Source: Brevundimonas sp. (GTDB taxonomy: Bacteria; Pseudomonadota; Alphaproteobacteria; Caulobacterales; Caulobacteraceae). Taken from it: 64,000 bases of DNA. A program made the position numbers and the translations under genes. The first letter of the stretch is position 1, and every line of letters starts with the position of its first letter. Under the pieces are notes generated by a model that had not been told where the DNA came from, made no database searches, and was given only the letters and a program-made list of their open reading frames with translations. This document shows, piece by piece, positions 8,596 to 61,415 of this stretch. The stretch spans positions 119,307-183,306 of the forward strand of contig NZ_JBHYDN010000003.1 in NCBI RefSeq assembly GCF_051860745.1. Reading direction: 5' to 3'.

Positions 8596-8639
8596 GGCTC
8601 ACGATCGGCGCCGGGAGGACAGTTCTCAGGCTTGCATTC

Positions 8640-8659: not shown

Positions 8660-8690
8660 TAGCGCAAGCTTACATAAGGATAATCCTCTG

Positions 8691-41995: not shown

Positions 41996-42199
41996 GGGGG
42001 GTTCGGCAGTGAGGGCGTGACCCCGTTCGTCCGCCGAAACCGCACAAAATTCGCTCACAAGGCGACTTGAGGCGTTAACTTGGCAGCACCCTCTTCGCCG
42101 CTTCCGCGCCGAAGCGGCGTCAGTTTGGGCGGCCGCGGTTGCCTGATTTCAGGCAGGGTAGGGCGGCTTTCGACTTGGCGCGGTTAACCTGGCAGCACC
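41996..42199 (+). mobile_element. Tandem IS6 end remnants
   Basis: GTTAAC(T/C)TGGCAGCACC at 42074-42090 and 42183-42199, with a transposase-like tail LRRFRAEAASVWAAAVA* between them. Confidence 0.65.
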
Positions 42200-42880: not shown

Positions 42881-43264
42881 CTACCGACGGGCGTTTACCA
42901 CCCTGGCGCATAGATCGCGTATTTCCTTGTCCAGTTGCGCGCCCGTGAAGGGCTTGGGAAGGCGTGCTTCTTCGCGCAATCGCTCCGGCAGGGCGTGCTC
43001 GCTGTAACCACTCAGCAGCAACACCGGCAAGCCGCGTTTCAGGAGCATGTCAGCCACGGGATAGGAATGGCCGCCGCGGATATTGATGTCGATGATCGCG
43101 AACCCAAGTGCCGCGTTGGTGGCCATGTCCAATGCCTTTTCCAGCTCGGCGATCGGACCGACGACTTCATGGCCAAGTCCTTCGACCGCGTCCTCTATGT
43201 CCATTCCAATCAGGGGTTCATCCTCGACCACGAGCACCCTGAAACGCACGACACCGTCCGTCAT
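42881..43264 (-). CDS. Single-domain response regulator
   Basis: VLVVEDE, AIIDINI, LSGY, PKPF; overlaps the kinase stop. Confidence 0.88.
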   Translation of the reverse strand: MTDGVVRFRVLVVEDEPLIGMDIEDAVEGLGHEVVGPIAELEKALDMATNAALGFAIIDINIRGGHSYPVADMLLKRGLPVLLLSGYSEHALPERLREEARLPKPFTGAQLDKEIRDLCARVVNARR

Positions 43265-46200
43265 CGCGGAGAGTCGTGCGACGGATCTGCGGAGCGGATG
43301 CGGCCAATGTCCTCGGCAAACGGAACCGAAATCTCGCAACGGACCCCTGTTGAAAGGAATTCCCGGTTCACCTTGGCGTTCAAGCCACGAACGAGACTGA
43401 TCTCGATGAGCTTCGTTCCGAAACCTCGGCTGCTCGGTGGCACAACGGGCGGACCGGCGGTTTCTAGCCACACGATTTCAAGCTCCGGCTTGCCCTCCGC
43501 TCCGGTAACGCGCCAGCTGACGTCGAGATGCCCTGTCTCGGTCGAAAGGGCGCCGTATTTGACCGCATTCGTCGCCAATTCGTGGAGCGCCAACGCCAGG
43601 CCCAAGCTGGCCCTTGATGAAAGCACGACGTCGACGCCCGACATTTCCACGTTATCGCGCTGCTCGTAGGGCCGTAGCTCGGTTGCCACGAGTCCCCGCA
43701 ATGAGCATTCAGCGCCGCCGAGCTCGGTCAGCAGACCATGCGCGCGCGCGATCGCCTGTATCCGCCCTTCGATATCGGCCCTCGCCGTCTCGTTGGTCCC
43801 GTCCGCCTTGAGTGTCTGGGTAACCACTGACGAGACGATGGCCAGAATGTTTTTCACCCGGTGATCGAGCTCGGCCATTAGCGTCTCAGCGCGGTCTTCG
43901 GCGGCTTTTCGCACGGCGATGTCGCGCGCTACCGCAGAAGCGCCGATAATCGTGCCCGACTTATCGCGCATGGGAGAGATCGTCAGCGACACATGGATCA
44001 CCCGGTCGTCCTTGGTCACCCGGCCGATATCGATGTCTGTGATCAGCTCCCCGCGCCGCAGCCGCGTCAGATTATCGGGCCATTCATTGATCTGTACGTC
44101 GTCCAGCAACCTGGACATTGGCTGCCCGATGATCTCGTCGGCGCTGTAGCCGTAGATCGTCTCGGCACCCGGGTTCCAGCTGGTGATCTTTCCGTTGAGA
44201 TCGTGACTGAGGATCGCATCCTGAGACGAGGTGACGATAGCCGCCAGATGGGCCCTGTCGCGTTCTAGCCGTTTCCGATCGGAGATATCGATGAGCGTAA
44301 TGACCACGCCGTCGATGACGTTGTTGAGGTCGCGGTACGGCTTTACTCGCACCAGATAGGTTGCCGCGCCGTCCTCCGATTCGGCCTCACGCTCCAGGGA
44401 ACCGAGGTCGCGCTGCACAGTCGCAATGTCTTTGGTCAAGGCCGAGCCGGTCAGGCGGGATGCGAAGTCGCCGATAGGCCGACCTTCGTCGCCCTCCCGT
44501 ACATTGAAGATTTCAGTGATCGCCGGTGTGAACCGTCGGATGCACAACGCATTATCCAGAAAGAGGGTGGCGATCGAGGTGTTGTCAAAGAGATTCGCGA
44601 GATCGCTGTTCGACCTGACGAGACTGTCAGCCCTGTTGTTCAGCTCCGCATTAACGGTTTGCAGCTCTTCGTTGATCGACTGAAGTTCTTCCTTTGACGT
44701 TTCGAGTTCTTCGACCGTTGAGTGAAGCTCTTCGTTGACCGATTGGAATTCTTCGTTGGAGCTCTGTAATTCCTCGTTCGCGGTTTCCAGCTCTTCGGTG
44801 ATGGCCTGCAGCTTCTCACGCGCGGCGATAAGCTCGCCATGGTCTGTATCGGAGGCGAGTGAGCTGACCTCGGGTTGATCCGTGATGTCTGACCCGACAG
44901 GTGGACCGAGTTCCTGGAAGGCGAGCAGGAGACACCTCTGCCCCCCAACCGGTTCCGCCATCGGCTCGGCGATCAGGTTGATCGTTTGCGCCTGTCCGGC
45001 GACCAGAAAGGTCGCCAGCTCCTGAACCTGCCGCTGGTCTTCGAGCGCCTTTCGGACAAGTGTCCGGACGGGCGAGCGCAGTTGAGTGTGCAGCATCCGA
45101 AAGAGATTCAGGCTGGCCCCGCCGCTTACCGGCTCCATGAATTTCGCGACCTGGCCCGAAAAGCGCTGGATCTCGTGTTGACCGTCAAAGACGATATAGG
45201 CCGGTGCGAATTGCGCCATCATCCGCGCCGCCTGGTCGTCGATGCCCTCGGCCTCTGACGGCGGCTTGGCCGATGACGCCTTCGTCATTCGGATGCTCGA
45301 CGGGGATCGCGGAACCTCGGACGCGACATCGAGGCGCCTGAAAATCCGACCGCGCTGGTCAAACGCCTTGAAGAGCCGCGCGCTCGCCGCAAGGGTCTCG
45401 GACGGACCGAGCCATAAGAGACCACAGGGTTTGATTCCGTAGTGAAAGGTTGCGATGACGCGCTGCTGCAACGCTGGTTCAAAGTAGATCAGAAGGTTTC
45501 GGCAAGACACCATATCGAGTTTGGAAAACGGTGGATCCTTTACCAGGTCATGTGTTGAGAAAACGCACATCTCCCGGATATGTTTTGCGACCCGGTAGCG
45601 CTGCCCTTCCTTGACGAAGTGTTTCTCGAGCCGCTCCGCTGTGACGTCGGCCTCTATGGCGTCGCTGTAGAGGCCGATGCGGGCAATTGTAATGGCCCGA
45701 TCATCGATGTCCGTCGCGAAGAGCGTGACTTGCCGTGGCGATTCGGCGTTCGTCAACGCCTCCTTGAGCAAAATGGCGATCGAATAGGCTTCCTCGCCTG
45801 TCGCACAGCCCGCCACCCATATGCGTAGAGGTTGTTCCGGACCACCTCTGGCGATCAAATCAGGCAGCGCGGTCTTCGCCAGCGCCTCGAATACGACGGG
45901 GTCGCGGAAAAACCGCGTTACGCCGATCAGGATCTCCCGGAACAGGAGTTCGGGTTCATCCGGCAATGTGCGCAGCAACCCTATATATTGCCGCGGATCC
46001 TGGACACGAAGCACCTGCATCCGTCGGTGGACACGGCGCATCAGGGTGCTGGACTTGTACTGGCCGAAGTCTCGCCCCAGGCGGCTGTTGAGCACGGCGC
46101 AGATCGTCATCAGGTATTTGGTCTGGTCCGGTCCAGACCCTTCGGACAAGCCATTGCTTGCGACATGGTCTTGGAAGTCGCGATATTCCAGCAAACGCGC

Positions 46201-46851
46201 CGGCATCTCCTGGGGTTGGAGCACATTGTCCACAAAGCCGCCCGCAGTCGCGCTCTGAGGCATGCCAAACTTGGCGCGATGGTCGAAGGCGGCTTCGCTG
46301 AGCGTCAGCCCGCCGCCCTCCTTGATGGCTGCGACACCAATCGTCCCATCGCTGCCGAACCCCGAAAGAATAATCCCCACAGCGTTCTCACCCTGGTCCT
46401 CGGCCAACGACACGAAGAAGGTGTCGATCGAGGACTGCCGGGCGGTCGGCGTCTCCGGCGGCGCGACACGGAGAACCCCATCCTCGATCTTCAGGATCGC
46501 GTTCTGGGGGATGACTGCGACGGTGTTTGGGGCCGCGACCGTTCCGTCGACGGCCTTCACCACTGGCATCGCGGTATATTCGCGAAGAATCTCAGCCAGC
46601 GCACTGTTGTAGTCAGGGTCCAGATGCTGAACCAGGACGAACGCCATACCGCTATCCGCGGGCATTTTGGAAAAGAACGACCGGAAGGCTTCAAGACCGC
46701 CGGCCGATGCGCCGATGCCAATGATCAGATGGCCCGTCGTCCCGGGCCAGTTGTCAGTTGGGCCGCCTCCCGCCGGCACATTTGCAGCTGATCGGGGGAC
46801 CGCCGCAGCTTGGACAGTAGGCGTTGATCTAGGCTTGGCCATGGCTACCAA
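43261..46851 (-). CDS. CheB-CheR-coiled coil-PAS-HWE histidine kinase fusion
   Basis: GIGASAGG, VQH, SGFGSDG; AGCATGEE, VSCRNLLIYF; NEELQS repeats; ELDHRVKN, LHELATNAVKYG, RGFG. Confidence 0.92.
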   Translation of the reverse strand: MVAMAKPRSTPTVQAAAVPRSAANVPAGGGPTDNWPGTTGHLIIGIGASAGGLEAFRSFFSKMPADSGMAFVLVQHLDPDYNSALAEILREYTAMPVVKAVDGTVAAPNTVAVIPQNAILKIEDGVLRVAPPETPTARQSSIDTFFVSLAEDQGENAVGIILSGFGSDGTIGVAAIKEGGGLTLSEAAFDHRAKFGMPQSATAGGFVDNVLQPQEMPARLLEYRDFQDHVASNGLSEGSGPDQTKYLMTICAVLNSRLGRDFGQYKSSTLMRRVHRRMQVLRVQDPRQYIGLLRTLPDEPELLFREILIGVTRFFRDPVVFEALAKTALPDLIARGGPEQPLRIWVAGCATGEEAYSIAILLKEALTNAESPRQVTLFATDIDDRAITIARIGLYSDAIEADVTAERLEKHFVKEGQRYRVAKHIREMCVFSTHDLVKDPPFSKLDMVSCRNLLIYFEPALQQRVIATFHYGIKPCGLLWLGPSETLAASARLFKAFDQRGRIFRRLDVASEVPRSPSSIRMTKASSAKPPSEAEGIDDQAARMMAQFAPAYIVFDGQHEIQRFSGQVAKFMEPVSGGASLNLFRMLHTQLRSPVRTLVRKALEDQRQVQELATFLVAGQAQTINLIAEPMAEPVGGQRCLLLAFQELGPPVGSDITDQPEVSSLASDTDHGELIAAREKLQAITEELETANEELQSSNEEFQSVNEELHSTVEELETSKEELQSINEELQTVNAELNNRADSLVRSNSDLANLFDNTSIATLFLDNALCIRRFTPAITEIFNVREGDEGRPIGDFASRLTGSALTKDIATVQRDLGSLEREAESEDGAATYLVRVKPYRDLNNVIDGVVITLIDISDRKRLERDRAHLAAIVTSSQDAILSHDLNGKITSWNPGAETIYGYSADEIIGQPMSRLLDDVQINEWPDNLTRLRRGELITDIDIGRVTKDDRVIHVSLTISPMRDKSGTIIGASAVARDIAVRKAAEDRAETLMAELDHRVKNILAIVSSVVTQTLKADGTNETARADIEGRIQAIARAHGLLTELGGAECSLRGLVATELRPYEQRDNVEMSGVDVVLSSRASLGLALALHELATNAVKYGALSTETGHLDVSWRVTGAEGKPELEIVWLETAGPPVVPPSSRGFGTKLIEISLVRGLNAKVNREFLSTGVRCEISVPFAEDIGRIRSADPSHDSPR

Positions 46852-46920: not shown

Positions 46921-47637
46921 TGTGTGGACGGCGCTCGATTGGCAAGGGCGTTGAGGTAGGGATTGGTGGGTTACAGTCTTGTGTTCGGCCTGTTGATGCA
47001 GGGCTCGGCCTGCTGGCCCTGATGTCGTCCGCTGACCTGGTCTCCTATCTCCGGTGAGCGCTTCGCTGCGCCGACAATTTATCGGAGTGTCCTGGTCTTC
47101 GGTCCCGATCCGGATCGCATCACCTCATGGTCCTTGCCAATTTGTGCCGCCGTCGGCGTTAAGCCGCGGCTGGATCCAGTCTGAAGGGCTCACCCCGCCT
47201 CATGATCGCCCAGGCGATCCGGGCCATCTTATTTGCGAGGGCGAGGGCGAGGGCGACCAGCTTGGGCGGCTTGCCCTTTTCGAGCAGGGTTTTGGCCCAC
47301 GTATCCAGACGTCCGGTTCGGGTTTTCGAGTGGCTGAGCACGGCCGTGGCTCCGGTAACGAGCAGGGTGCGCAGGTAGCGATCCCCCATCTTCGACACGC
47401 GCCCGAGCCGGGTCTTTCCGCCCGAGGAGTTCTGTCGTGGAGCCAGGCCCAGGAACGCTGCGAACTCCCGACCAGAGGCGAACATGGAAGGATCGGTGAC
47501 GCTGGCGGCGAGGGCCGTAGCTGTCACGGGACCGACACCCGGAATGCCCGCCAGGCGCTGACTGACCTCAGTGATTCGATGCCATTCGAGAAGCTGCTGA
47601 TCCAACTGCGCGATCTGCTGCTCCAGGCTGGTCAGCT
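46921..47637 (-). mobile_element. IS110-family remnant: C-terminal transposase (47159-47637) plus about 240 bp of 3' non-coding end
   Basis: IPGVGPVTATAL, FASGREFAAFLGLAPRQNSSGGK, LANKMARIAWA; truncated by IS6 copy 2. Confidence 0.85.
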
Positions 47638-48448
47638 GGTGCTGGCAGTCTAACGCTAGAAGGTCTCCGGTAAGGGCTTGATGTCCGGGAGGCGGGATGG
47701 ATCCGATCAGTTTCAAGCGGCATCGGTTCCCCGGAGCCGTAATTGTGCAGGCGGTGCGCTGGTACTTCCGTTTCACGCTCAGCATTCGTGACGTCGAGGA
47801 GTTGATGGCCGAACGCGGGATTGCGGTCAGCCGTGATGCGATCCGGTGCTGGGTCATCAAGTTGACCCTCTGATTGCCGCCAACCTGCGCCGGGTGAGAT
47901 CACGCCCTACCGGCCGTTGGCACCTGGATGAGGTTGTCGTGAAGATCGGTGGCCGGCGAATGTATCTGTGGCGCGCTGTCGATGATGAGGGCGAGGTGTT
48001 CGACGTTCTGGTCCAGAAGCGCCGGAACAAGCAGGCGGCGCTGAAGGTGCCGCGCCGCCTCTTGCGCAACAGTGGGATCCAACCGGAGGCTATCGTCACC
48101 GATGAGCTGGCCTCGTACAGAGCGGCGATGAAGGTGCTGAATCTCCAGGCCCGTCACCGCCCCGGCGGGATGCGGGAGAACAATCGCGCCGAGAACCCGC
48201 ACCTCCTGATCCGCCGACGAGAACGCAAACAGCAGAAGTTCAAATCCCAGGGTTCAGCCCAGCGTTTCCTCTCCAGCCACGGTCCGATTTACAACGCGTT
48301 CAATCTCCAGCCCCATCTGGTGTCCCGAGCCGGCCTTCGCTCCCTGCGAGGTCTGGCTGACAACGCCTGGGCGGCCGCAACCCAAGCTGCCTGAAACGGG
48401 GAAGGGAAGGGGCCATCTGCGGGCTAGGAGACTTAAGTTGTCAGTCCC
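47638..48448 (+). mobile_element. IS6-family element copy 2, transposase 47697-48394 with a -1 frameshift
   Basis: Ends GGTGCTGGCAGTCTAA and TTAAGTTGTCAGTCCC; CDS span of 698 nt is not a multiple of 3. Confidence 0.9.
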
Positions 48449-48824: not shown

Positions 48825-50105
48825 CTATTTCAGGAGGGTCGGAAGCCACAGCGAAAGCGCCGGGATGAAGGTGACCAGCATCAGCACGCCGGCGCAAGTC
48901 AGCCAGAACGGCCAGATGGTCTTCAAGGCCCTGGTCATCGGTATGCCGGCGATGGCGCTGCCGACGAACAGGACTGATCCGACCGGCGGGGTGATCAGGC
49001 CGATGCCGCAGTTGAGCAGCAGGATGACGCCGAACTGGACAGGATCGACGTCGAACGCCTTGGCCACCGGCAGGAAGATGGGGGTGCAGATGATGATCAG
49101 CGGGGCCATGTCCATGAAGGTGCCGAGGATCAGCAGGATAACGTTGATCATCAGCAGGATCACGATCGGATTGTCGGTCAGGGTCTGCAGCAGATCGACC
49201 ATCATGGTCGGCACCTGCATATAGGCCATCAGCCAGCCGAAGGCCCCGGCGCAGCCAATGATGAACAGGACCACGCCCGAGGTCCGCGCCGCCCCGAGGC
49301 AGGCGGCCTTGAAGGCGCGCCAGGTCATGTGGCGATAGATCAGGCCGGTGACGACGGTGGCGTAGACCACGGCGATGGAGGCGCTCTCCACCGCGGTGAA
49401 GATCCCGGCGCGGATCCCTCCGAAGATGATGCCGACCAGCAGCAGTCCGGGGATGGCGGCCACCAGCCGGACGGCCACGGCGCGGAAGCCGGGGAAGGCC
49501 TCGGCGGCGTATCCGCGTCGCCGCGCCACGACATAGGAGGTCACCATAAGGGCGGCGGCCAGCATCAGGGCGGGGATAATGCCCGCGGCGAACAGGTCGG
49601 AGATCGACACCCCGCCGCCGGCTGAGGCCGAGTACAGGATCATATTGTGCGAGGGCGGCACCAGCAGGGCCACCAGTGCCGCCGAGATGGTGACATTGAC
49701 GGCGTAGTCGGCGTCATAGCCGCGCTTCTGCATCTGCGGGATCATGGTGCCGCCGATGGCCGAGACGTCGGCGATGGCGCTGCCCGAAACCCCGCCGAAC
49801 AGGGTCGAGCCGACCACGGTGACCTGTCCCAGGCCGCCGCGCACATGGCCGACCATGGACGCGGCGAGGGCGATCATCCGGTCGGACAGCCCGCCCTTCA
49901 TCATCAGTTCGCCGGTGAAGATAAATAGTGGAATGGCCAGCAGGGCCACCGAGGTGATGTCCGACCCCATCTGCTGGAACACCACGATCGGCGGCAGGGC
50001 CAGATAGAGGACGGTCGCCAGGGTCGCGGCCAGCAGGGAGAAGGCGACCGGCACGCCGATTGCCAGAAGGATGGCCAGGAGGCCGAAGAGGATGATGTAT
50101 TCCAC
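48825..50105 (-). CDS. dctM: TRAP transporter large permease (DctM)
   Basis: LLAIPLFIFTGELM, GGVSGSAIAD, LVPPSHNMILY, ITPPVG. Confidence 0.92.
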   Translation of the reverse strand: MEYIILFGLLAILLAIGVPVAFSLLAATLATVLYLALPPIVVFQQMGSDITSVALLAIPLFIFTGELMMKGGLSDRMIALAASMVGHVRGGLGQVTVVGSTLFGGVSGSAIADVSAIGGTMIPQMQKRGYDADYAVNVTISAALVALLVPPSHNMILYSASAGGGVSISDLFAAGIIPALMLAAALMVTSYVVARRRGYAAEAFPGFRAVAVRLVAAIPGLLLVGIIFGGIRAGIFTAVESASIAVVYATVVTGLIYRHMTWRAFKAACLGAARTSGVVLFIIGCAGAFGWLMAYMQVPTMMVDLLQTLTDNPIVILLMINVILLILGTFMDMAPLIIICTPIFLPVAKAFDVDPVQFGVILLLNCGIGLITPPVGSVLFVGSAIAGIPMTRALKTIWPFWLTCAGVLMLVTFIPALSLWLPTLLK

Positions 50106-50107
50106 GC

Positions 50108-50620
50108 TCAGTCCTCCGCCTTCCCGGCGACATCCGGCGCGCGATAGTCACCGGTCAGCAGGCGCTCGAGCGAGAACAACAGAATCAGCGTGCCGCCGAC
50201 GCACAGGCCGGCGAATTTGAGCCCCGAGGGCAGGGGCGCTCCGGCCAGGGCGACCGGCCATTCGTCGATCATCAGGGTCCCGCCCAGGATCATCAGCCCG
50301 GCGCCGGCGGCGGCGGCGATCAGGCGCGCGATCGACTTCAGCAGCCACTGGAGCGGACCCGGCGCCGCGTCGCGGAAGGATTGGAAGGCGAAATGGGTCT
50401 CGCGCCGCACCGCCACGGCCGCGCCGAACATCACGGCGAAGCTCATCAGCAGCAGGGCGAGAGGCTCGGTCCAGCCCGGGCTGTCGTTCAGCACATAGCG
50501 GGCGAAGACCTGCCACGCCTGGATCAGGGCCATGGCCACGAGGGCAAAGCCTGCGAGCCCCATCGCGAGGCTGGCGAGACCGTCAAGCGCGCGCGCGCTT
50601 CCGCGTCGTGGTTCAGACAT
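50108..50620 (-). CDS. dctQ: TRAP transporter small permease (DctQ)
   Basis: QVFARYVLN..P.WTEPL...FGAAVAVRRETH. Confidence 0.88.
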   Translation of the reverse strand: MSEPRRGSARALDGLASLAMGLAGFALVAMALIQAWQVFARYVLNDSPGWTEPLALLLMSFAVMFGAAVAVRRETHFAFQSFRDAAPGPLQWLLKSIARLIAAAAGAGLMILGGTLMIDEWPVALAGAPLPSGLKFAGLCVGGTLILLFSLERLLTGDYRAPDVAGKAED

Positions 50621-50657
50621 GCAACGCCCTCCCTGAGCGTCGGGTTTGCGCGGTCGT

Positions 50658-51650
50658 TCAGGCAACCGCTGCGATCCGTTCGTGGAGCGCGCGCAGGCGC
50701 GGCTCGGCGAGATATTTGTCCAGCACGGGCCGGACGGTGGCGGCGAAGGCGGCCTTGTCGACCTCGGCGACCTGGACGCCGGCGGCGATGACCGCGGTGC
50801 GGGCGTCGGCTTCGCGCTTGTCCCAGTCGATGCGCATGACCTGCACCGAGCGTCTCGCCACGTCGCGGACCAGTTCGCGGTCCGCCGGCGTCAGGGCGTC
50901 GAAACTGGCCTTGGACATGAGCAGGGCGTCGGGAGAGAAGGAATGCTCGGTCTGGCTCCAGAACGGGGCGACCTCGAACTGGCGGCTGGACTGGTAGGCC
51001 GGCCAGTTGTTCTCGGCCCCGTCGATGAGATGGGTCTGCAGCGAGGAGAAGACCGCGCCGAAGGTCAACGGCGTCGGATTGGCGCCCATGGCCCGGATGG
51101 AGTCGAGGAAGATGTCCGACTGTGGCGCCCGCATCTTCAGGCCGCGCATTTCGCCGGGCTCGGTCACGGGGCGCCGCACATTGTAGAAGCAGCGCGGCGC
51201 GGCATCGTAATAGGCCAGACCGATCAGGCCCCGACCCTCGAATACGTTGAGAAGTTCGGTGCCGATCTCGCCGTCCACCACGGCCCGGACGTGAGGCACG
51301 GAGCGGAAGACGTAGGGCAGGGCCAGCAGCCGGGTTTCCGGAAAGGCGTTGTTCAGCGCGGCGACGGCGACCCGGCACATGTCGACCGCCTGGAAGCGCG
51401 CCAGGCCGATGGAGTCATCCTCGTTGCCCAGTTGTCCGGAGGGAAACTGCCGGATGCCCAGCCGACCGGCCGTAAGGCGCCCCAGTTCCTCGCCCATCCA
51501 TTTGACGGCGGTCACCGTCGGGAAGTCGCTGGGATGGACGTCGACCGCACTGAAGACGGTCTGGCCATTGGTGGCCGGGCGCGGGGCGCAGGAAGCCAGG
51601 CTGAGGCCGGACAGGCCCGCAAGACCGAGAGAACGACGGGTCAGGCTCAT
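50658..51650 (-). CDS. dctP: TRAP substrate-binding protein (DctP) with Tat/lipoprotein signal
   Basis: TRRS + LASC; GLKMRAP, SSLQTHLIDGAENN. Confidence 0.9.
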   Translation of the reverse strand: MSLTRRSLGLAGLSGLSLASCAPRPATNGQTVFSAVDVHPSDFPTVTAVKWMGEELGRLTAGRLGIRQFPSGQLGNEDDSIGLARFQAVDMCRVAVAALNNAFPETRLLALPYVFRSVPHVRAVVDGEIGTELLNVFEGRGLIGLAYYDAAPRCFYNVRRPVTEPGEMRGLKMRAPQSDIFLDSIRAMGANPTPLTFGAVFSSLQTHLIDGAENNWPAYQSSRQFEVAPFWSQTEHSFSPDALLMSKASFDALTPADRELVRDVARRSVQVMRIDWDKREADARTAVIAAGVQVAEVDKAAFAATVRPVLDKYLAEPRLRALHERIAAVA

Positions 51651-52459
51651 ACGATGGCTCCTGTCGCCGGGACCGCGAGACAGTCGATATGGCCGTCGGG
51701 TCCGAAGTCTGCGGAGGCGGACTGACCGGCGAAGATATCGTGCACCCCGGTGGCGGCGCCGGTCGAGACCAGTTGTCCCGCCTCAAGCCGCCGGCCGCGC
51801 CGGTGCAGCAGGTTCAACAGGAAGGCCAGGGAATCGAGCGGCCCCCCCGGAATCGCCGTCGCGCCGCCGCGTCCGATGACGACGTCATTGATGGCCATGG
51901 TGCAGGTCAGGCCGGACAGGCGCTGGCGCCAGCCGGCGATCTCGCCGCCGAGGATCAGGCCGGCGTTGTTGCCGAAGTCCGAGGCCGTGACGGCCGGGCC
52001 GTGGTCGTTGATGCCCGCAAAGGGGCTGCCGGCGATCTCGACACCGATGAAGGCGCGGGAGACCAGCGTCGCGACCGTATCGACGGTCCAGTCGCCGCGA
52101 TCCGGCGCGGTTTCGCCGATCTCGATCACATATTCCGCCTCGACCGCCGCGAAGCCGCCCTCGATCACGCCGAAGTGGGTCGGGGTCTGGCCGGCGGTCC
52201 AGACGCTCCGCGAAAAGATCGGCCCGGCCAGCCGTCCGGCGCCGAAGCGCACATCGTGTGGGGCGTTGATCCGACCCAGTTTCCAGCCCGCGATCCGGTC
52301 CGGCCAGGCGGCGATCGCCTCGTCCTGGATGGCGTATGCGGCCTCGAGCGATTCGGGCTGCAGGCCCGGATAGGCTTCAAGCGCGCGACCGCCGCGACGC
52401 GCGCCGACAAAGGCCCGCGCGATCGGCGAAGTCGCTGAATTATCGTGTGCGTGGCTCAC
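51647..52459 (-). CDS. 2-keto-4-pentenoate hydratase/FAH-superfamily protein
   Basis: AYAIQ, GWKLG, VEAE, GQLVSTG. GTG start follows GGGAGG. Confidence 0.75.
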   Translation of the reverse strand: MSHAHDNSATSPIARAFVGARRGGRALEAYPGLQPESLEAAYAIQDEAIAAWPDRIAGWKLGRINAPHDVRFGAGRLAGPIFSRSVWTAGQTPTHFGVIEGGFAAVEAEYVIEIGETAPDRGDWTVDTVATLVSRAFIGVEIAGSPFAGINDHGPAVTASDFGNNAGLILGGEIAGWRQRLSGLTCTMAINDVVIGRGGATAIPGGPLDSLAFLLNLLHRRGRRLEAGQLVSTGAATGVHDIFAGQSASADFGPDGHIDCLAVPATGAIV

Positions 52460-52494: not shown

Positions 52495-52508
52495 GGAAAC
52501 CGGTGTCA
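52495..52508. promoter_or_regulatory. LacI-type operator GGAAACCGGTGTCA
   Basis: Matches the palindrome TGACACCGGTGTCA; lies between the TRAP operon and the pectate lyase. Confidence 0.7.
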
Positions 52509-52588: not shown

Positions 52589-53956
52589 ATGACCCTGCTC
52601 CGCCTCGCCGCCCTCGCGGCCGCCCTCGTCCTTCCCGCCGCTTTGGCGATGCCGACGTTCGCGCAGACGCCCGCGCCGGTCGCCGCCGACGCGCTGCTGC
52701 CTGCCTTCCCCGGAGCCTTGGGCTGGGCGGCGCAGACGCCGGGCGGGCGTGGCGGTCAGATCATCCGCGTCACCAATCTGGACGCCTCCGGCCCCGGTTC
52801 GCTTCGCGCCGCCATCGAGGCCGACGGGCCGCGCATCGTGGTGTTCGAGGTCGGCGGGGTCATCGACCTGGGCAAACAGACGCTGCGCCTTCGCAACCCC
52901 TTCATCACCATCGCCGGCCAGACGGCGCCCTCGCCGGGCATCACCCTGATCCAGGGCGGCATGGACATCACCGCCCACGACGTGATCGTCCAGCACATCC
53001 GCATCCGTCCCGGCTCGGCCGGCGGCGCATGGATGAGCGGCTGGGACGAGGACGGCATTTCCACCATCGGGGCCTGGAACGTCATCATCGACCACTGCAG
53101 CCTGACCTGGGCGACCGACGAAAACCTGTCGGCCTCGGGCCCGCGCTTCACCGGTTCGACGCCCGAGGAATGGCGCCGCGGCACCAGCCACAACATCACC
53201 TTTTCGAACAATCTGAACGGCGAAAGCCTGGCCTATTCGACCCATTCCAAGGGCGAGCATTCCAAGGGCTCGCTGATCCACGACAATGTCACCGGCCTGC
53301 TGATCGTCGGCAATCTGTACGCCCACAACTACGAGCGCAGCCCCCTGTTCAAGGGCGGGGTGCACGGGGTGATCGTCAACAACCTGATCTACAACCCGGG
53401 TCCACGGGCCATCCACTACAACCTCGCACCCGAAGAATGGGGAACCGTCCCGTTCGAGGTCGGCAAGATGACGGTGATCGGCAATGTCCTGCGCGCCGGC
53501 CCGTCGACGCCGGTCGACCAGCTCGCCTTCATGATGATAGGCGGGGCCGGCGACGTGGAATACTACGGCCGCGACAACATCGCCGTGGACCAGGTCGGCG
53601 AGCCGATCCGCATGTTCGGCCGCTACACCACCAGCCCGGCGCGCATCATTCAGACGCGCCGTCCGCCGGTATGGTGGGAGGGCCTGACGCCCATGCCCGC
53701 CGGTGACGTCCAGCGCGCGGTGCTGTCGCAGGTCGGAGCCCGGCCATGGGACCGCGACATGCGCGACGTGCTGCTGATCGCGGAAGTGGCCGAGGGCCGC
53801 GGCGAGATCATCGACCACGAGCGCGAGGTCGGCGGTTATCCAGCCGTGATCGAGGCGACCCGCAAGCCGTTCAACCGCGACGACTGGGACCTGCGCTTCA
53901 TGACCCCATTGCGCGACGAAGTTCTGGACCGGCCGGCGACGCGACGCGGGACGTGA
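52589..53956 (+). CDS. Secreted pectate lyase (PL1-like)
   Basis: AFPGALGWA..TPGGRGG, TIAGQTAP, IIDHCS..W.TDE, RSP. Confidence 0.82.
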   Translation: MTLLRLAALAAALVLPAALAMPTFAQTPAPVAADALLPAFPGALGWAAQTPGGRGGQIIRVTNLDASGPGSLRAAIEADGPRIVVFEVGGVIDLGKQTLRLRNPFITIAGQTAPSPGITLIQGGMDITAHDVIVQHIRIRPGSAGGAWMSGWDEDGISTIGAWNVIIDHCSLTWATDENLSASGPRFTGSTPEEWRRGTSHNITFSNNLNGESLAYSTHSKGEHSKGSLIHDNVTGLLIVGNLYAHNYERSPLFKGGVHGVIVNNLIYNPGPRAIHYNLAPEEWGTVPFEVGKMTVIGNVLRAGPSTPVDQLAFMMIGGAGDVEYYGRDNIAVDQVGEPIRMFGRYTTSPARIIQTRRPPVWWEGLTPMPAGDVQRAVLSQVGARPWDRDMRDVLLIAEVAEGRGEIIDHEREVGGYPAVIEATRKPFNRDDWDLRFMTPLRDEVLDRPATRRGT

Positions 53957-54015: not shown

Positions 54016-55059
54016 GTGAACAAACCCGGACGGACCGGCGTCAAGCCCGCCACGATTAACGACATCGCCCGGCTCGCCGAGGTGTCGAAGAAGACCGTCT
54101 CGCGGGTCATCAACAATTCGCCCTTCGTCAAGGAAGAGACGCGCAAGCGGGTCGAGGCGGTCATCGCCGAGCATGGATTCACCCCCGACCCGCAGGCCCG
54201 GGGCCTGGCCTTCCGGCGGTCGTTCCTGGTCGGGATGATCTATGACAATCCCAGCCCGAACTATGTGGTCAACATGCAGCAGGGCGTGCTGGACGCGGTG
54301 CGCGGCTCGGGCCTTGAACTGGTCGTCCACCCCTGCAACCGGGGCACGGACACCTTCCTGAACGAGGTGCGGGCCTTCATCGTCCGGCAGAAGCTGTTCG
54401 GCGTGGTCATGCCGCCGTCGGTGTCCGAGGACGACCGGGTGGTGGCCATCCTGAAGGAGGCGGATTGTCCCTATGTCCGGATCGCTTCGGTCTCGCTGGA
54501 CGAACCCGCCTGTATGGTGGTGACCCACGACAGCCGCGGCGCGGCCCAGGCGGCGCGGCATCTGGCGGAGCTGGGGCACAGGCGGGTGGCCTTTATCTCG
54601 GGTCCGGACAGCTTCCGGTCTTCACATGAGCGCGGACGGGGTTTCAGCGAGGGGCTGGCCGAGCACGGGCTGGTGCTCGATGATCGCTATGTGCGCCAGG
54701 GCGCCTATACCTTCGAATCCGGGGTTGAGGCGGCGGCCAGTCTGCTGGCCATGGCTGAGCCGCCGACCGCGATCTTCGCCGGCAATGACGAGATGGCCAT
54801 CGGCGTGATGAAGGCCGCGCGCGACGCCGGTCTCGACGTGCCGCGCGACCTGTCGATCGTCGGCTTCGACGACCTGCCGATGGCGTCGCGCGTCTGGCCC
54901 AACCTGACGACCGTCCGCCTGCCCATCCGCGACATGGGCCGTATGGCGGCCGAAAAGCTGACCGCCCGCAGCCGCGGGCTGGATCCGGCGACCCTGGTCC
55001 AGCCCGAGGTCGATCCCTTCCTGGTGGTGCGCGATTCGGCGGCGCCGCCGGGGCGGTAG
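54016..55059 (+). CDS. LacI family transcriptional regulator
   Basis: [21 protein letters not shown]; AGNDEMA; SIVGFDD. Confidence 0.93.
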
Positions 55060-55080: not shown

Positions 55081-55094
55081 TGACACCGGTTACC
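55081..55094. promoter_or_regulatory. LacI-type operator TGACACCGGTTACC upstream of kduI
   Basis: Same core as the other three sites. Confidence 0.75.
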
Positions 55095-55129: not shown

Positions 55130-55963
55130 ATGTACTGCAAGACCTATCACGCCACCCATCCGGACATGATGGACGGGGTCACCAATGATCAGCTGCGCGA
55201 GCGCTATCTGATCGACGGCCTGTTCGCGGGCGGGGATATCCGCCTGAACTACACCCACTATGAGCGGTTCGTGATCGGTGGGGTCCAGCCGGGCGGCGCG
55301 ACGGTGAAGCTGCCTGATCAGACCGAGCCGGCCTCGGCCGCAGGCCATCCGTTCCTCGAGCGGCGCGAACTGGGCGTGGTCAATGTCGGCGGCGCAACCG
55401 GGACGGTCACCGTCGACGGTCAGGCCTATACGCTGGAGGCCAACGACGGCCTCTATGTCGCCATGGGTTCGAAGGACGTGACCTTCGCCGGCGACACCCG
55501 TTTCTACCTCGCCTCGACCCCGGCCCATGTCCGCTACGAGACCAAACACATCTCGCTGAGCCAGGCCGTGCCGCTGGAGCGGGGCGCGCTGGAGACTTCG
55601 AACGAGCGGACCATCTACCAGTACATCGTCCCGGCCACCTGCCAGTCGTGCCAGCTGCTGCTGGGCCTGACGATCCTCAAGACCGGCAGCGTCTGGAACA
55701 CCATGCCGCCGCACCTGCATGACCGGCGCTCGGAGGTCTATTTCTACTTCGGCCTGGGCGCTGACGACCGCGTCTTCCACTTCATGGGCGAGCCTGATGC
55801 GCAGCGCCATATCGTGGTCGCTGACGGCGAGGCAGTGGTGTCGCCGCCGTGGTCGATCCACATGGGCTCGGGCACGTCGAATTACACCTTCATCTGGGCG
55901 ATGGGCGGCGAGAATCTGGACTATACGGACATGACCGTCCTCGACATCTGCCAGCTGAAATGA
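55130..55963 (+). CDS. kduI: 5-dehydro-4-deoxy-D-glucuronate isomerase
   Basis: [48 protein letters not shown]. Confidence 0.95.
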
Positions 55964-56715
55964 GCGGCTTTGACCTCACCGGGCGGGTGGCCATGGTCAC
56001 CGGCGCCAACACCGGCCTGGGCCAGGCCATCGCCGTCGGACTGGCGCAGGCCGGGGCCGACATCATCGCCGTGGGAAGGTCGGCGCCGACCGGGACGGCG
56101 GCCATGGTGGCGGAGACGGGGCGAGCCCTGCACCCCATCTCCGCCGACCTGTCGTCCATCGCTCCTATCGCTGATGTAGTGGCCCAGGCCGTAGCCGCGG
56201 TCGGAGCGATCGACATTCTGGTCAACAACGCCGGCGTCATCCGCCGCGCCGACAGCCTCGACTTCACTGAGGAAGATTGGGACGCGGTCATCGACACCAA
56301 TCTGAAGACCGCCTTCTTCCTCAGCCAGGCCGTGGCCCGGACCTGGGCGGCGGCGGGCCGGGGCGGCAAGATCATCAACATCTGTTCGATGCTGAGCTTC
56401 CAGGGCGGCATCCGCGTGCCGTCCTATACGGCTTCCAAGAGCGGTCTGGCCGGGCTGACGCGTCTGCTGGCCTGCGAGTGGGCGAGCAAGGGCATCAACG
56501 TCAACGCCATCGCGCCGGGCTATTTCTCGACCAACAACACCGAAGCCCTGCGCGCTGACGAGACCCGCAACCGCGACATCCTCGCGCGGATCCCGGCTGG
56601 CCGCTGGGGCGATCCGTCCGACATCAGCGGCGCGGCGGTCTTTCTGGCGTCGGATGCGGCGGCCTACGTCCACGGCACGGTGCTGGCGGTGGATGGGGGT
56701 TGGCTGGCGCGGTAG
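55960..56715 (+). CDS. kduD: 2-dehydro-3-deoxy-D-gluconate 5-dehydrogenase
   Basis: [26 protein letters not shown]; ATGA overlap with kduI. Confidence 0.93.
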
Positions 56716-56903: not shown

Positions 56904-58280
56904 TCAGTGGGCCAAGCTGTTCAGCCAGTCTTCCAGGTTGGTATAGCCATCGCCGTCCCGGTCGGCCGCTCCGTCAACTGCGTCGGCAGGATTGAGGCCA
57001 TGGGCCGTTTCCCAGTTGTCCGGCATGCCGTCGCCATCGCCGTCGATCCAGGGTGATCCCGCACTCAGTTCCGGCCAGCCGCCGACCTGGGACTGGCTGT
57101 CGATGATGCGGCCGGTCCGGTCGCGGACGCCCCTGATGATGCGGGCGTCGACGGCGTCGCGCACCCGGCCGGCGCCGACGTGGGCCAGTACGCGGACCTC
57201 AGCCTCCGACGCTGTTTCGCTCGCGGCGTCCGCCCAGTCGGGTCGGGTCGCCAGCCGGTAGTCCGGGCGGTCCGAATCCTTCACCAGACTCCACGGGTCG
57301 ACCGGGACGGCGCCGTCCATGGCGTTGCCCTCGAACCAGGCGCGGGCCAGCGGATTGGATTCCTCGAACGCCTGCCGGCCGGCCGAGTCCGGACCGGGGA
57401 TGTAGGCGTTGCCGATGAAGGTATAGGCCGACAGGCTTTCGGTGTCGGCGTTGTAGCCTGCGTGACCGCCGCTCCAGTCATAGAAGACGTTCGACCGGAA
57501 CTCGAACCGGGCCCCCTCGGGATCGACCGAGGGCGGATTGTAGTTGCCCGGCCGGGGCATGCGCGCCCGGTGAGCGGCCCACAGATTGTGATGGAAGGTC
57601 ATACGCGCGCCGTGCCCGCCACGCACCAGCGTCCCGTAGCCGTGGTCGCCCTTGGCGTGGCCGGAGGCGTTCAGTGATTCCGCGATCAGCGACCACTGCA
57701 CGGTGACATCATAGATGCCGCGCTCCGGCGGGTTGTAGCGGCTGCCGACCGACAGGGTCTCGTCGACGGACCAAGAGGCGGAGATGTGATCGAGGATGAT
57801 CCGGCGGCCGCGTTCGACCGATATGGCGTCGGCCTCGACCCCGCTCTCGTCCCCGAGGCGCGAGCGGAGATGGCGGATCACCACATCATCGGCCGACACG
57901 ACCAACGGATGGTCGCGCAAGGTGATTCCGCCACCGGGCGCTGTCTGGCCGGCGATCGTGATGCGGCCGCGCCGGACGGTCAGGGGCGAGGCCAGGCGGA
58001 TCAGGCCGCTGATGTCAAAGATAACCGTGCGCGCCCCATCAGACTCGACCGCCGCGCGCAGGCTGCCCGGACCTGCATCGCCCAGATGCGTCACGCGCAG
58101 GACGCGTCCGCCGCGTCCGCCCGATGCAAACCGGCCCGCACCTTCGGCCCCGGGAAATGCGACCACGCTTTCGGCTGATTGCGCGAATGCAGGGTGTGCC
58201 CCCGACGACACGCCAATCACGCTTACCGCAACGCTGGTGACAATGAGGCGACGAAGCGGGGTTGCGAAAGCGGGGATCAT
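56904..58280 (-). CDS. Second secreted pectate lyase (PL1-like) with an acidic Ca-binding-type tail
   Basis: AFPGAEGAG...GGRGG, ILDHIS.SW..DE, RMPR, DGDGDGMPD.WE...DGDGYTNLE. Confidence 0.82.
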   Translation of the reverse strand: MIPAFATPLRRLIVTSVAVSVIGVSSGAHPAFAQSAESVVAFPGAEGAGRFASGGRGGRVLRVTHLGDAGPGSLRAAVESDGARTVIFDISGLIRLASPLTVRRGRITIAGQTAPGGGITLRDHPLVVSADDVVIRHLRSRLGDESGVEADAISVERGRRIILDHISASWSVDETLSVGSRYNPPERGIYDVTVQWSLIAESLNASGHAKGDHGYGTLVRGGHGARMTFHHNLWAAHRARMPRPGNYNPPSVDPEGARFEFRSNVFYDWSGGHAGYNADTESLSAYTFIGNAYIPGPDSAGRQAFEESNPLARAWFEGNAMDGAVPVDPWSLVKDSDRPDYRLATRPDWADAASETASEAEVRVLAHVGAGRVRDAVDARIIRGVRDRTGRIIDSQSQVGGWPELSAGSPWIDGDGDGMPDNWETAHGLNPADAVDGAADRDGDGYTNLEDWLNSLAH

Positions 58281-58297
58281 CAGGTTAGGCTCATGAT

Positions 58298-58311
58298 TGC
58301 TACCGGTGTCA
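58298..58311. promoter_or_regulatory. LacI-type operator TGCTACCGGTGTCA
   Basis: Near-palindrome close to the lyase start. Confidence 0.7.
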
Positions 58312-58331
58312 GAAGTCATTCCATGCGAAGA

Positions 58332-58345
58332 TGACACCGGTGTCA
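58332..58345. promoter_or_regulatory. LacI-type operator TGACACCGGTGTCA (perfect palindrome)
   Basis: Between the divergent lyase and TonB receptor genes. Confidence 0.85.
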
Positions 58346-58430
58346 AACGATTGGGCCAAAGAAGCCGGGTCGCAATAACACATAGACCGGGGCTACCTCG
58401 GCGTTCTGTATGCCCATTGGGAGGGAGCAT

Positions 58431-61415
58431 ATGTTGCAAGCCATTCAGCCGGGGATGACCCGCACTTTTCGCCGCAGCCTGTTCGCCGGAGCGTCCGGCC
58501 TGGCCGTCGCCCTGTCGCTTGGCCTGGGAGCCGGCGCCGCCGCGGCCCAGACCGCGCCGCCACAGGAAGCCACCGAAATCGACGAGATCGTCGTCACTGG
58601 CTTCCGGGCCAGTCTGACCGCCGGCCTCGACGCCAAACGGCGTGACGCCAACGTCATCGACGTGATCGTCGCCGAGGACATCGCCGACTTCCCCGACCTG
58701 AACCTGGCCGAGTCAATTCAGCGCGTCCCGGGCGTCGCCATCGACCGTGACGCCGGCGAGGGCCGCTCCATCACGGTCCGCGGTCTGGGCTCCGATTTCA
58801 CCCGCACCCGCATCAACGGCATGGAGGCCCAGGCCACCGCTGGCGGCACCGATTCATCGGGCGGCGCCAACCGCGGCCGCGGCTTCGACTTCAACGTCTT
58901 TGCTTCCGAACTCTTCAACAGCATCACGGTCCGCAAGACCGCCGCGGCTGAGACCGAGGAAGGCTCGCTCGGCGCGACCGTCGATCTGCAAGCCACGCGG
59001 CCCTTCAACAACCGCGGCTTCACCATGGCCGCCTCGTTCCAGGGCGGCTACAACGACCTGTCGGAAAACTGGGACCCGCGCGCCGCCTTTCTGATCAGCA
59101 ACACCTTCGGGGCGAACGACGAGTTCGGCGCGCTCTTCTCCGTCGCTTACAGCGAGCGCAACATTCTAGAGGAGGGCTTCAGCTCCGTCCGCTGGGCGCC
59201 GGCGTTTGGAACCGGCAGTTCGGGCGGCTTCTGCTCGCCCGTCGGCGTTGCCCCCCAGAACCCGGGCAACAGCGGGGCCAACGGCTCCAGCGCCGCCAAC
59301 TGCTCGACCGGCAATCCGCGTCCGGCCAACACCCCCGGCAACGTCGCCGCCTACAATACGGCCAACCAGAACAACGTCTTCATCCCGCGCCTGCCGCGCT
59401 ACGGTCGCCTGACCCATGAGCAGGAGCGTCTCGGCCTCACCAGCGCCTTCCAGTGGCGCCCGGCCGACACCACCCTGTTCTCGCTGGATATCCTGTATTC
59501 CGAGCTGCACGCGACTCGTCAGGAAGACTTCCTGGAATCGCTGTCGTTCAGCCGCAACGCCGCGGCCGGGGGGCAAACCCAGGTCATCGTCCGCGAGGCC
59601 GAGGTTCAGAATGGCATGCTGGTCTACGGCCTCTTCGACAACGTCGATGTCCGGTCCGAGTCCCGCTTCGACGACCTGACCACCGAGTTCCTGCAGTACA
59701 GCCTGACCGCCGAGCACGATTTCAGCGACCGCCTGCGCGGCCGCGCCTACTACGGTCGGGCGGAATCTGACTTCGACAACCCGTTCCAGACCACGGTCAC
59801 CCTGGATCGGCGGGACACGGACGGCTTCTCGTGGGATTTCCGCGGCAATCCGAACGCGCCGCTGATCGACTACGGCTTCGACGTCACCAGCGCGGCCGCC
59901 TGGTCATGGAGCCAGACCGGCTCGCCGACGCCTCGCTCCGAGATCCGCATTCGTCCCCAAGGCGTCGACACCGTGTTCGAGGCGGCCCAGGCCGACTTGG
60001 AATTTGACGCAAACGACTGGCTGACCATCAAGGGCGGCGTCAACTGGAAGACCTACGGCTCCCGCTCATTCGAGTTCCGGCGTCCCGACGAAACGGTCGT
60101 GCCGGCCTTGCCGGGCGGCACCACGGTGGCGGACATCTCCAACCTGCTGACCGGCTACGGCAGGAACCTGGTGCCCGCCGGCACGGCCACCAGCTGGCTT
60201 CGCCCCGACCTGGACGCCATCGCGACGCTTTTCAACATCTACTGCAACTGCAACACCGGCGTTCCTGGTGGCGACTTCACCATGTCCAGCTTCACCAACG
60301 GCAACGCACGCGGCGGCAACCGCTACGTCAGCGAGGACGACCTGGCCTTTTACGTCCAAGCCGACTTCAATACCGAACTGTTCAACATGCCGTTCCGCGG
60401 CAATGTCGGGGTGCGCCAGGTCAATACCCAGCTCTACGCCGAGGGCTACAGCTCGACCGGCGGCGGCACCCTGGTGTTCGGAACGCATGAATATGACGAC
60501 ACCCTGCCGTCGCTGAACCTGGCGCTGGAGCCAGTCGAGGATCTGATCGTCCGTTTCGGCGTGGCCAAGGTCATGGCGCGCCCGCAGATCAACAACTCGC
60601 TCTCGGGTGCCAACTATCTGGTGCCGACGACCTCGCTGAACGCGACGGGGCCGAACTTCACCGCCACGATCGGCAATGTGAATCTGGATCCGTTCCGGGC
60701 CACCACCTACGACCTCAGCATCGAATGGTATTTCGCGCCGGAAAGCCTGCTGTCCTTTGCCTATTTCTACAAGGACATCGACACCTACATCCAGGTGATC
60801 CGGCAGGACCTGCCCTATACGGACCTGACCGCGCTGAACCCGTCGGCGTTCGACCCCGCCTTCTGTTCCGGCGCCTGTTCGCCCACGACGATCTTCGCGC
60901 TGACCTCGGCGGTGAACACCGACGGCGGTCCGCTGTCGGGCTTCGAGATCAGCTACCAGCAGCCGTTCCGCTTCCTGCCGGGCCTGTTCTCGAACACGGG
61001 CGTCCAGTTGAACTTCACCCACGTCGAGTCCGAGATCGACTACTGCAACGACGCCCTGTGCTCGACCTTCGTCACGGCCGATCTGATCAGCCTGTCGCCC
61101 CGGTCGTGGAACGCCACGCTCTACTATGAGGATGACCGGTTCTCGGCCCGGATCTCGGGTTCGTCGCGAGAGGGCTATATCCAGAACGTGCCCGGACGGA
61201 ACGGCAACAACATCGAAGGCAAGATGGAGACCTTCAACGTCGACGCCGCCGCCTCGTACCAGATCACCGAACATGTGCAGCTGACCTTTGAGGCGATCAA
61301 CCTGACCGACGAGTTCAATCACCAGTTCGTCGGCGACGGTCTCGATCGCGAGAGCACCTCAGTTTATCATCACACGGGCCGGCAGTACTTCTTCGGTGCG
61401 CGCTATCGCTTCTAG
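58431..61415 (+). CDS. TonB-dependent receptor (carbohydrate-locus type)
   Basis: EIVVTGFRASL, DIADFPDLNLAESIQRVPGV; ends in FGARYRF; GGAGGGAG RBS. Confidence 0.93.
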   Translation: MLQAIQPGMTRTFRRSLFAGASGLAVALSLGLGAGAAAAQTAPPQEATEIDEIVVTGFRASLTAGLDAKRRDANVIDVIVAEDIADFPDLNLAESIQRVPGVAIDRDAGEGRSITVRGLGSDFTRTRINGMEAQATAGGTDSSGGANRGRGFDFNVFASELFNSITVRKTAAAETEEGSLGATVDLQATRPFNNRGFTMAASFQGGYNDLSENWDPRAAFLISNTFGANDEFGALFSVAYSERNILEEGFSSVRWAPAFGTGSSGGFCSPVGVAPQNPGNSGANGSSAANCSTGNPRPANTPGNVAAYNTANQNNVFIPRLPRYGRLTHEQERLGLTSAFQWRPADTTLFSLDILYSELHATRQEDFLESLSFSRNAAAGGQTQVIVREAEVQNGMLVYGLFDNVDVRSESRFDDLTTEFLQYSLTAEHDFSDRLRGRAYYGRAESDFDNPFQTTVTLDRRDTDGFSWDFRGNPNAPLIDYGFDVTSAAAWSWSQTGSPTPRSEIRIRPQGVDTVFEAAQADLEFDANDWLTIKGGVNWKTYGSRSFEFRRPDETVVPALPGGTTVADISNLLTGYGRNLVPAGTATSWLRPDLDAIATLFNIYCNCNTGVPGGDFTMSSFTNGNARGGNRYVSEDDLAFYVQADFNTELFNMPFRGNVGVRQVNTQLYAEGYSSTGGGTLVFGTHEYDDTLPSLNLALEPVEDLIVRFGVAKVMARPQINNSLSGANYLVPTTSLNATGPNFTATIGNVNLDPFRATTYDLSIEWYFAPESLLSFAYFYKDIDTYIQVIRQDLPYTDLTALNPSAFDPAFCSGACSPTTIFALTSAVNTDGGPLSGFEISYQQPFRFLPGLFSNTGVQLNFTHVESEIDYCNDALCSTFVTADLISLSPRSWNATLYYEDDRFSARISGSSREGYIQNVPGRNGNNIEGKMETFNVDAAASYQITEHVQLTFEAINLTDEFNHQFVGDGLDRESTSVYHHTGRQYFFGARYRF

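Follow-up and report, generated by a model that had tools for sequence, protein, structure and literature searches.

What does a hydratase-like enzyme do at the head of a transporter operon for pectin breakdown products? The question is posed by a 64,000-nucleotide stretch of a Brevundimonas sp. genome (contig NZ_JBHYDN010000003.1, positions 119,307–183,306; hereafter the window, with coordinates counted from its first nucleotide), which carries a 14-kb pectin locus. Polyuronides such as pectin are a main source of carbon in soil and water as well as in the gut. Their degradation by the KduI/KduD route is textbook knowledge, and KdgF, an unrelated cupin that does the ring-opening job in other bacteria, was added to it only in 2016. 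In the window, an MhpD-like gene, hereafter HYD, heads the operon of a tripartite ATP-independent periplasmic (TRAP) transporter within the pectin locus. An earlier reading of the letters alone (the sequence-only reading) had proposed that its product is a new enzyme acting on 4,5-unsaturated uronate or on 5-dehydro-4-deoxy-D-glucuronate (DKI), the substrate of the isomerase KduI. Our computational tests agree with that proposal, through co-occurrence of HYD with KduI or its alternative DhuI and complementarity with KdgF, and from them we infer the reaction itself. HYD belongs to a large, discrete, real and conserved family that is mis-annotated and is part of the unsaturated-uronate pathway, and the candidates for its reaction are few.

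HYD is a minus-strand open reading frame (ORF) of 270 amino acids (51647–52459) that starts at a GTG, 5–6 nucleotides downstream of an AGGGAGG ribosome site. It is the first gene of a four-gene minus-strand operon (48825–52459) that continues with dctP, dctQ and dctM. As the sequence-only reading had pointed out, HYD overlaps dctP: the TGA stop of HYD lies inside an ATGA that also contains the dctP ATG, and through this 4-nucleotide overlap the two genes are translationally coupled. The protein has no signal peptide and is cytoplasmic.

The AlphaFold2 model of HYD, with a predicted local distance difference test (pLDDT) score of 96, shows the MhpD/HpcG/NahK fold. Foldseek matches it to 2eb4, 8ih6, 5d2f and 1sv6 at E of about 1e-20, with template modelling (TM) scores of about 0.8 and 19–23% identity, and a family profile of 55 representatives aligns over its full length with MhpD (1e-24), NahK (2.5e-22) and HpcG (2e-16). 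In enzymes of this branch, the 2-oxo or 2-enol acid is held by a divalent metal, and C3 of the metal-bound enolate receives a proton. HYD shares fold, length, metal triad and Lys60 with its solved members MhpD (1sv6/2wqt), HpcG/HpaH (2eb4) and NahK/DmpH (5d2f, 8ih6). In the profile alignment, Lys60 and the E-x-E...E triad (E107, E109 and E141) stand in register with MhpD, where E106, E108 and E139 are the three carboxylate metal ligands.

Beyond this shared core, the family has conserved features of its own. Nine residues are invariant among the 55 representatives (R21, Q45, W59, K60, G79, E107, E109, E141 and G234), and R21, Q45, W59, R76, H240 and the motifs EIA[GS]SP and SDFGNN are near-invariant family features, of which R21, Q45, R76 and H240 are extra conserved positions relative to the MhpD branch. 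In HYD the two motifs read EIAGSP (residues 141–146) and SDFGNN (residues 160–165), and in the profile alignment they correspond to EVVGSR and ADNAS in MhpD and to EVIDSR and ADNAS in NahK. The sequence-only reading had taken both motifs as departures from canonical hydratases, and this holds in part. Both are present and conserved throughout the family, with an Arg-to-Pro change that turns the SR of E..(G/D)SR into SP and a two-residue F-G insertion that expands ADN to SDFGNN; the Gly is not a departure, since the EVVGSR of MhpD already has it.

The public annotation of HYD is 2-keto-4-pentenoate hydratase, a label repeated in the ESM Atlas. HYD nevertheless falls far below every NCBIfam equivalog cut-off of this group, scoring 38 bits against 351.5 for HpaH (TIGR02312), 29.6 against 350.6 for DmpH (TIGR03218), 21.8 against 350 for MhpD (NF008461) and 19.4 against 408.8 for DmpE (TIGR03220). 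Clustering with the aromatic-pathway hydratases, the outcome that would have spoken for a meta-cleavage enzyme, is not seen. No Pfam match to HYD is found even at E up to 1. Grouped at 50% identity, the family itself makes up 183 clusters with E < 1e-30. Its profile matches over 401 genomes fall apart into members, whose E is 1e-81 or better, and paralogues, for which it is no better than 1e-42; the latter are devoid of SDFGNN and of pectin neighbours. Five fused or longer family members carry no extra Pfam domain; a search of longer proteins returned one 529-residue family match with PF13298, which is probably a mis-called fusion.

The host genome is 100% complete, and its gene content narrows the chemistry that HYD could serve. 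It encodes two exported pectate lyases, KduI, KduD and the 2-keto-3-deoxygluconate kinase KdgK, with Eda encoded elsewhere in the genome, and it has no KdgF, Ogl (PF14583), glycoside hydrolase (GH) family 88/105 or GH28 enzyme, UxaC or KdgD above cut-off. The absence of KdgF, which the sequence-only reading had noted for the locus, extends to the whole genome. We searched with a profile of seven KdgF-type cupins encoded beside kduI, one of them checked against the structures 5fpx (7.5e-56) and 5fq0 (1.9e-36); in the host it finds nothing better than generic cupins at 1.5e-5, encoded elsewhere, and none of the host's three cytoplasmic cupins matches KdgF structures. With neither UxaC nor KdgD, saturated galacturonate has no known route in this host, so that only the unsaturated, KduI branch is usable. 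The pectin locus is a lyase-only system feeding KduI, with no recognised enzyme for splitting unsaturated dimers.

What enters the cytoplasm can be narrowed from the transporter. The closest solved TRAP binding proteins to DctP are 4n8y, 4x8r, 4ovr and 4n15 (E of 1e-75 to 6.5e-92), which were reportedly solved with galacturonate or glucuronate bound. At other HYD loci, the place of the TRAP transporter is taken by a major facilitator superfamily (MFS) protein of the sugar-acid class (ExuT/DgoT). Because the nearest relatives of DctP are hexuronate binders and the MFS proteins are of the sugar-acid class, the imported substrate is most likely a monomer, judging from these similarities either 4,5-unsaturated galacturonate or its open form DKI.

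The distribution of HYD follows the isomerases closely. Among 121 Caulobacteraceae genomes, HYD occurs in 34, KduI in 31 and DhuI in 7; KduI or DhuI accompanies HYD in 32 of its 34 carriers, and 32 of the 33 isomerase carriers have HYD, the sole genome that has an isomerase but not HYD being 89% complete. A true KdgF is found in none of the 121, the best match reaching 53 bits, where real ones score more than 100. In a wider sample of 401 Pseudomonadota, 50 genomes have KduI, and these divide into 14 with HYD only, 25 with KdgF only, 1 with both and 10 with neither, a near-exclusivity that we regard as suggestive. A swap is seen within one genus, where one genome (G140) has HYD-DctPQM beside KduI and another (G309) has DctPQM-KduI-KduD-KdgF. 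Five annotated plasmid regions around kduI contain no KdgF; within the phylum sample, genomes with KdgF beside kduI are found. Since HYD tracks KduI and KduD and almost never stands beside KdgF, it probably does the ring-opening step of KdgF in a different fold.

Gene neighbourhoods give the same picture. We compared 80 loci with 10-kb flanks, encoding proteins 48–93% identical to HYD, together with the window (81 in all), from Brevundimonas, Caulobacter, Phenylobacterium, Hyphomonadaceae, Sandaracinobacter, Azospirillaceae, Lysobacteraceae, Steroidobacteraceae, Woeseia and Ahniellaceae. Genes were called by a codon-usage score, with HYD defined by tblastn; the products were clustered, and cluster representatives were named with Pfam and NCBIfam. 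Directly downstream of HYD on the same strand, 58 of the 81 loci have a hexuronate transporter gene (a TRAP subunit in 35, an ExuT/DgoT-class MFS protein in 23). Upstream of HYD and divergent from it lies a pectate lyase gene in 37 loci and lacI in 17. The seven genes to either side include genes for LacI (58 loci), KduD (49), KduI or the RpiB-like DhuI (49), a polysaccharide lyase (PL; 43), KdgK (31), a TonB receptor (30) and UxaC, UxaA or UxaB (13–14). At least one marker of the unsaturated branch (PL, KduI, DhuI or KduD) is present in this range in 69 loci, so the pectin context noticed in the window recurs across the family. KdgF and Ogl are found within 10 kb of HYD in none of the 81 loci, and no meta-cleavage aldolase or dehydrogenase gene occurs near HYD, whose neighbours are genes for TRAP or MFS transporters, PL, LacI, KduI or DhuI, KduD, KdgK and UxaCBA.

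More distant members were also inspected. One at 39% identity forms an operon in the order HYD-KduI-KduD; four others (P0232, P0226, P0243 and P0249) are on short contigs or have uninformative surroundings, and P0192 adjoins a sulfatase. A 40%-identity member on a metagenome contig (L138, 440–3276) is next to a sulfatase gene, a possible hint that it works on sulfated uronate-containing polysaccharides.

In many close relatives (L014, L015, L019, L021 and other Brevundimonas loci; also L003:4889-5530), an RpiB-like protein with DUF3666 takes the place of KduI. It matches NF006753 at about 320 bits, forms a kduD-dhuI pair and leaves the HYD and TRAP operon unchanged; it is probably a DhuI-type isomerase. 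This kduD-dhuI pair has been described as ‘type H’ (PMC12838403).

Taken together, these observations lead us to propose HYD as a metal-assisted ring-opening and ketonising enzyme that would convert 4,5-unsaturated galacturonate to DKI, a non-homologous stand-in for KdgF; reading from sequence and context, we put this at an even chance. In the proposed route, the exported lyases and the TonB-dependent receptor, whose genes and signal peptides are seen, would bring lyase products to the periplasm, and the TRAP transporter would import monomeric 4,5-unsaturated galacturonate. The conserved E107, E109 and E141 would hold a metal that chelates the C6 carboxylate and O5 of the substrate, which would favour ring opening of the hemiacetal and leave a 2-enolate bound to the metal. 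Protonation at C4 by Lys60, or by the family-specific Asp161 or His240, would then yield the keto acid DKI for KduI. HYD would be a divalent-metal-dependent enzyme, co-translated with an inner-membrane hexuronate transporter and acting before KduI or DhuI. The protonation of an enolate to a keto acid is the last half-reaction of MhpD and HpcG on their own enol intermediates.

KdgF is the natural comparison. It occupies the same type of locus, with kduI/kduD or dhuI/kduD, uronate transporters and lyases, and speeds the conversion of 4,5-unsaturated monouronates to DKI/DEH, a step that fits the chemistry of the HYD fold. The two proteins differ in fold and in size (about 110 residues for the KdgF cupins 5fpx and 5fq0, 270 for HYD), and two genomes carry both. 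HYD, structurally a branch of the MhpD group, does not share descent with KdgF and may share its function. The FAH fold, to which the MhpD branch belongs, offers precedents on 2-keto-3-deoxy sugar acids, namely KdaD (2-keto-3-deoxy-D-arabinonate dehydratase) and the L-2,4-diketo-3-deoxy-rhamnonate/fuconate hydrolases. These belong to other branches of the superfamily, with different reactions and pathways, and Foldseek places HYD at TM 0.5–0.6 to such FAH members.

Several points weigh against ring opening as the function of HYD. The complementarity with KdgF tracks taxonomy (roughly 6 lineages against 7) and is not statistically strong. One genome (G363) has both HYD and KdgF, and in another (G321) HYD and kdgF lie 16 kb apart in one uronate region. 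In one Caulobacteraceae genus, HYD is the last gene of an operon that also encodes an ATP-binding cassette (ABC) importer, GH28 and GH105, and GH105 is described as releasing DKI directly, which would leave no unsaturated monomer for HYD. On the side of mechanism, Asp78 of MhpD, in a P-D-F-G segment, has no counterpart in HYD: it falls in an insertion, and HYD reads R76-L-A-G-P there. The proton-transfer residues named above are consequently guesses. Release of monomers by the two exported PL1-type lyases is an assumption, and ring opening itself is a predicted activity. As to the GH105 operon, KdgF has been described as acting after GH88 too, in a 2025 mSphere paper (PMC12838403), so that the adjacency of HYD to GH105 is not decisive.

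Two of these cases can be described further. G321, a low-GC relative within the same taxonomic order, has HYD-lacI-dhuI-kduD (L129; G321:C1:626000-645999), with a true kdgF behind two genes for proteins of 747 and 720 amino acids, which may be lyases for another polyuronide. In the genus with GH105 (g17; genomes G039, G057, G091 and G104), the HYD and GH105 genes are adjacent. One of its loci (L130; G104:C1:786000-805999, 5833–13636) has an operon of a TogMNAB-like ABC importer, GH28, GH105 and HYD, followed by a TonB receptor gene and kdgK; the N-termini of its GH28 and GH105 proteins, read by eye, have no evident signal peptides.

An alternative is that HYD acts one step later, on DKI or DKII, interconverting cyclic or hydrated and open-chain forms, carrying out a reversible dehydration, or returning a side product. 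The dehydration variant would be the MhpD reaction run backwards on the 4-hydroxy-2-oxo acid moiety of DKI; by established chemistry, DKI falls into this class of acids together with what MhpD and HpcG produce. The position of HYD directly after GH105 in one genus, where DKI is expected, its coexistence with KdgF in G321 and G363, and its tight tie to KduI or DhuI all speak for this alternative. What it leaves unexplained is the near-exclusive pattern of HYD and KdgF and the fact that in most loci HYD is coupled to the transporter and not to kduI; moreover, no need for such a step is known, KduI and KduD working without it in E. coli and Dickeya. We consider action on DKI or DKII unlikely, though it is the main rival to ring opening.

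The lack of Ogl, GH88/105 and GH28 in the host raises a further candidate, in which unsaturated di- or oligogalacturonides are cleaved by HYD in the cytoplasm, through hydration of their vinyl ether, in place of the missing GH105 or Ogl. At least 20 of the 34 HYD-bearing Caulobacteraceae lack both Ogl and GH105, and GH88/105 enzymes, which also feed KduI, hydrate the same 4,5-double bond in lyase products, and hydration is native to the fold of HYD. They are, however, unrelated (alpha/alpha)6 proteins with oligosaccharide substrates, and HYD does not replace them, since the two coexist: every one of the 13 Caulobacteraceae with GH88/105 has HYD as well, adjacent in four, which points to different jobs. 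The partner transporters are of the monomeric sugar-acid type, and saturated galacturonate released by such a cleavage could not be used in the host, for want of UxaC or KdgD. We find cleavage of dimers or oligomers improbable.

A role outside carbon flux is also conceivable, in which HYD makes or removes the effector of LacI, for example by converting imported uronate into the true inducer, and is dispensable for the flux itself. HYD is the first gene of the transporter operon and is adjacent to or divergent from lacI in 23 loci; its link to the presence of KduI or DhuI is, on the other side, as tight as that of a pathway enzyme. This role is pure speculation and we hold it to be very improbable. 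Least credible, and in our view nearly excluded, is an ordinary aromatic meta-cleavage hydratase or decarboxylase of the MhpD, HpaH, DmpE or DmpH type placed beside the pectin locus by chance: the public label, the shared fold and the metal triad speak for it, whereas the equivalog scores of 38, 30, 22 and 19 bits against cut-offs of 350 to 409, the pectin context kept in 81 loci across several orders with no meta-cleavage genes nearby (the context of the MhpD branch itself), and the placement of the HYD operon under the LacI operator of the locus speak against it.

Two other roles were considered and rejected. A KdgD-like role in the oxidative pathway was set aside because no recurrent neighbour family at HYD loci comes from that pathway, and a galacturonate 4,5-dehydratase was rejected on chemistry, as the substrate has no activating 2-oxo group.

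For ring opening by HYD, the literature provides a place. In a 2025 survey, kdgF was found in fewer than half of the strains with an isomerase-reductase cluster, and the step was taken as non-enzymatic elsewhere (PMC12838403). HYD tracks the isomerase-reductase cluster almost one-to-one in whole families and would fill part of this gap. In the papers open to our search, no MhpD-like gene is connected with pectin, galacturonate, pectate lyase, kduI or kduD, although an earlier mention may exist elsewhere. More broadly, the family could be a new one of MhpD-fold, metal-dependent ‘unsaturated uronate linearases/ketonases’, the non-homologous counterpart of KdgF in Caulobacterales, Sphingomonadales, Xanthomonadales-like Gammaproteobacteria and others, a generalisation that we advance tentatively and place just short of evenly balanced. 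If it is correct, a ring-opening step assumed to be spontaneous would be enzymatic after all in part of the KdgF-negative degraders of pectin and glycosaminoglycans (GAGs), and these bacteria would degrade pectin by lyases alone, importing the unsaturated monomer by way of a hexuronate-type TRAP or MFS transporter. The annotation ‘2-keto-4-pentenoate hydratase’ would be corrected in thousands of cases, and a sugar-acid reaction would be added to the MhpD branch of the FAH fold.

The pectin locus around HYD is organised as follows. Downstream of HYD on the minus strand, dctP (50658–51650) encodes a TRAP solute-binding protein of the hexuronate-binding type (best solved relative 4n8y, E 6.5e-92), dctQ (50108–50665) the small membrane subunit and dctM (48825–50105) the large one. 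The N-terminus of DctP, TRRSLGL...LSLASC, has an RR motif and an LASC lipobox and, by inspection, looks like a twin-arginine translocation (Tat)/lipoprotein signal. Divergent from HYD on the plus strand lies the gene for PLa (52589–53956), an exported PelZ-like pectate lyase with a Sec signal peptide, followed by the genes for the LacI-family repressor of the locus (54016–55059) and for KduI (55130–55963; NF002091 at 390 bits against a cut-off of 250), the sole copy in the genome. The KduD gene (55849–56715; TIGR01832, 396 bits) comes next on the same strand. Its longest ORF overlaps the end of kduI by 115 nucleotides (55849–55963), and the alignment to the KduD model begins at residue 41; the true start is probably near residue 38–41 of the ORF, about 110–120 nucleotides further downstream.

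The second exported PelZ-like pectate lyase, PLb (56904–58439), is encoded on the minus strand, and beyond it on the plus strand are genes for a TonB-dependent outer-membrane receptor (58410–61415) and a KdgK-like PfkB-family 2-keto-3-deoxygluconate kinase (61519–62625). Here kdgK follows the TonB receptor gene; in close relatives it stands directly after dctM.

Copies of the palindrome TGACACCGGTGTCA mark the promoters of the locus. The perfect copy is at 58332, and copies with 2–3 mismatches are at 52495, 55081 and 58298. The one at 52495–52508, GGAAACCGGTGTCA, has 2 mismatches to the palindrome and lies in the divergent promoter region of HYD and the pectate lyase gene, 36 nucleotides upstream of the HYD start. 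The copy TGACACCGGTTACC (55081–55094) precedes kduI, and two, including the perfect palindrome, lie between PLb and the TonB-dependent receptor gene (58298–58345). Four of the six matches in the window fall in promoters of the 14-kb locus, with 2.45 expected in the whole 64 kb. These positions support the putative LacI operator that the sequence-only reading had placed in front of the HYD operon. The longest PLb ORF, with a TTG start, would span both operator copies beside it; an internal ATG near 58280 (MIPAF...), followed by a signal peptide, is the likelier start. With this start, both operators are intergenic and shared with the TonB receptor gene.

The locus is flanked by remnants of insertion sequences (IS; 47054–48394 and 62458–63564): an IS110-type fragment (47159–47860) and an IS6-type fragment (47846–48394) on one side, and an IS6/IS240-type transposase (62458–63564) on the other. 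A composite transposon with identical copies was rejected, the flanking IS6 pieces being 73% alike over 89 nucleotides and inverted. Elsewhere in the window, a 1,196-residue protein (43261–46851) combines CheB methylesterase, CheR methyltransferase and PAS domains with an HWE histidine kinase, and a separate CheB-like gene lies at 42149–42760.

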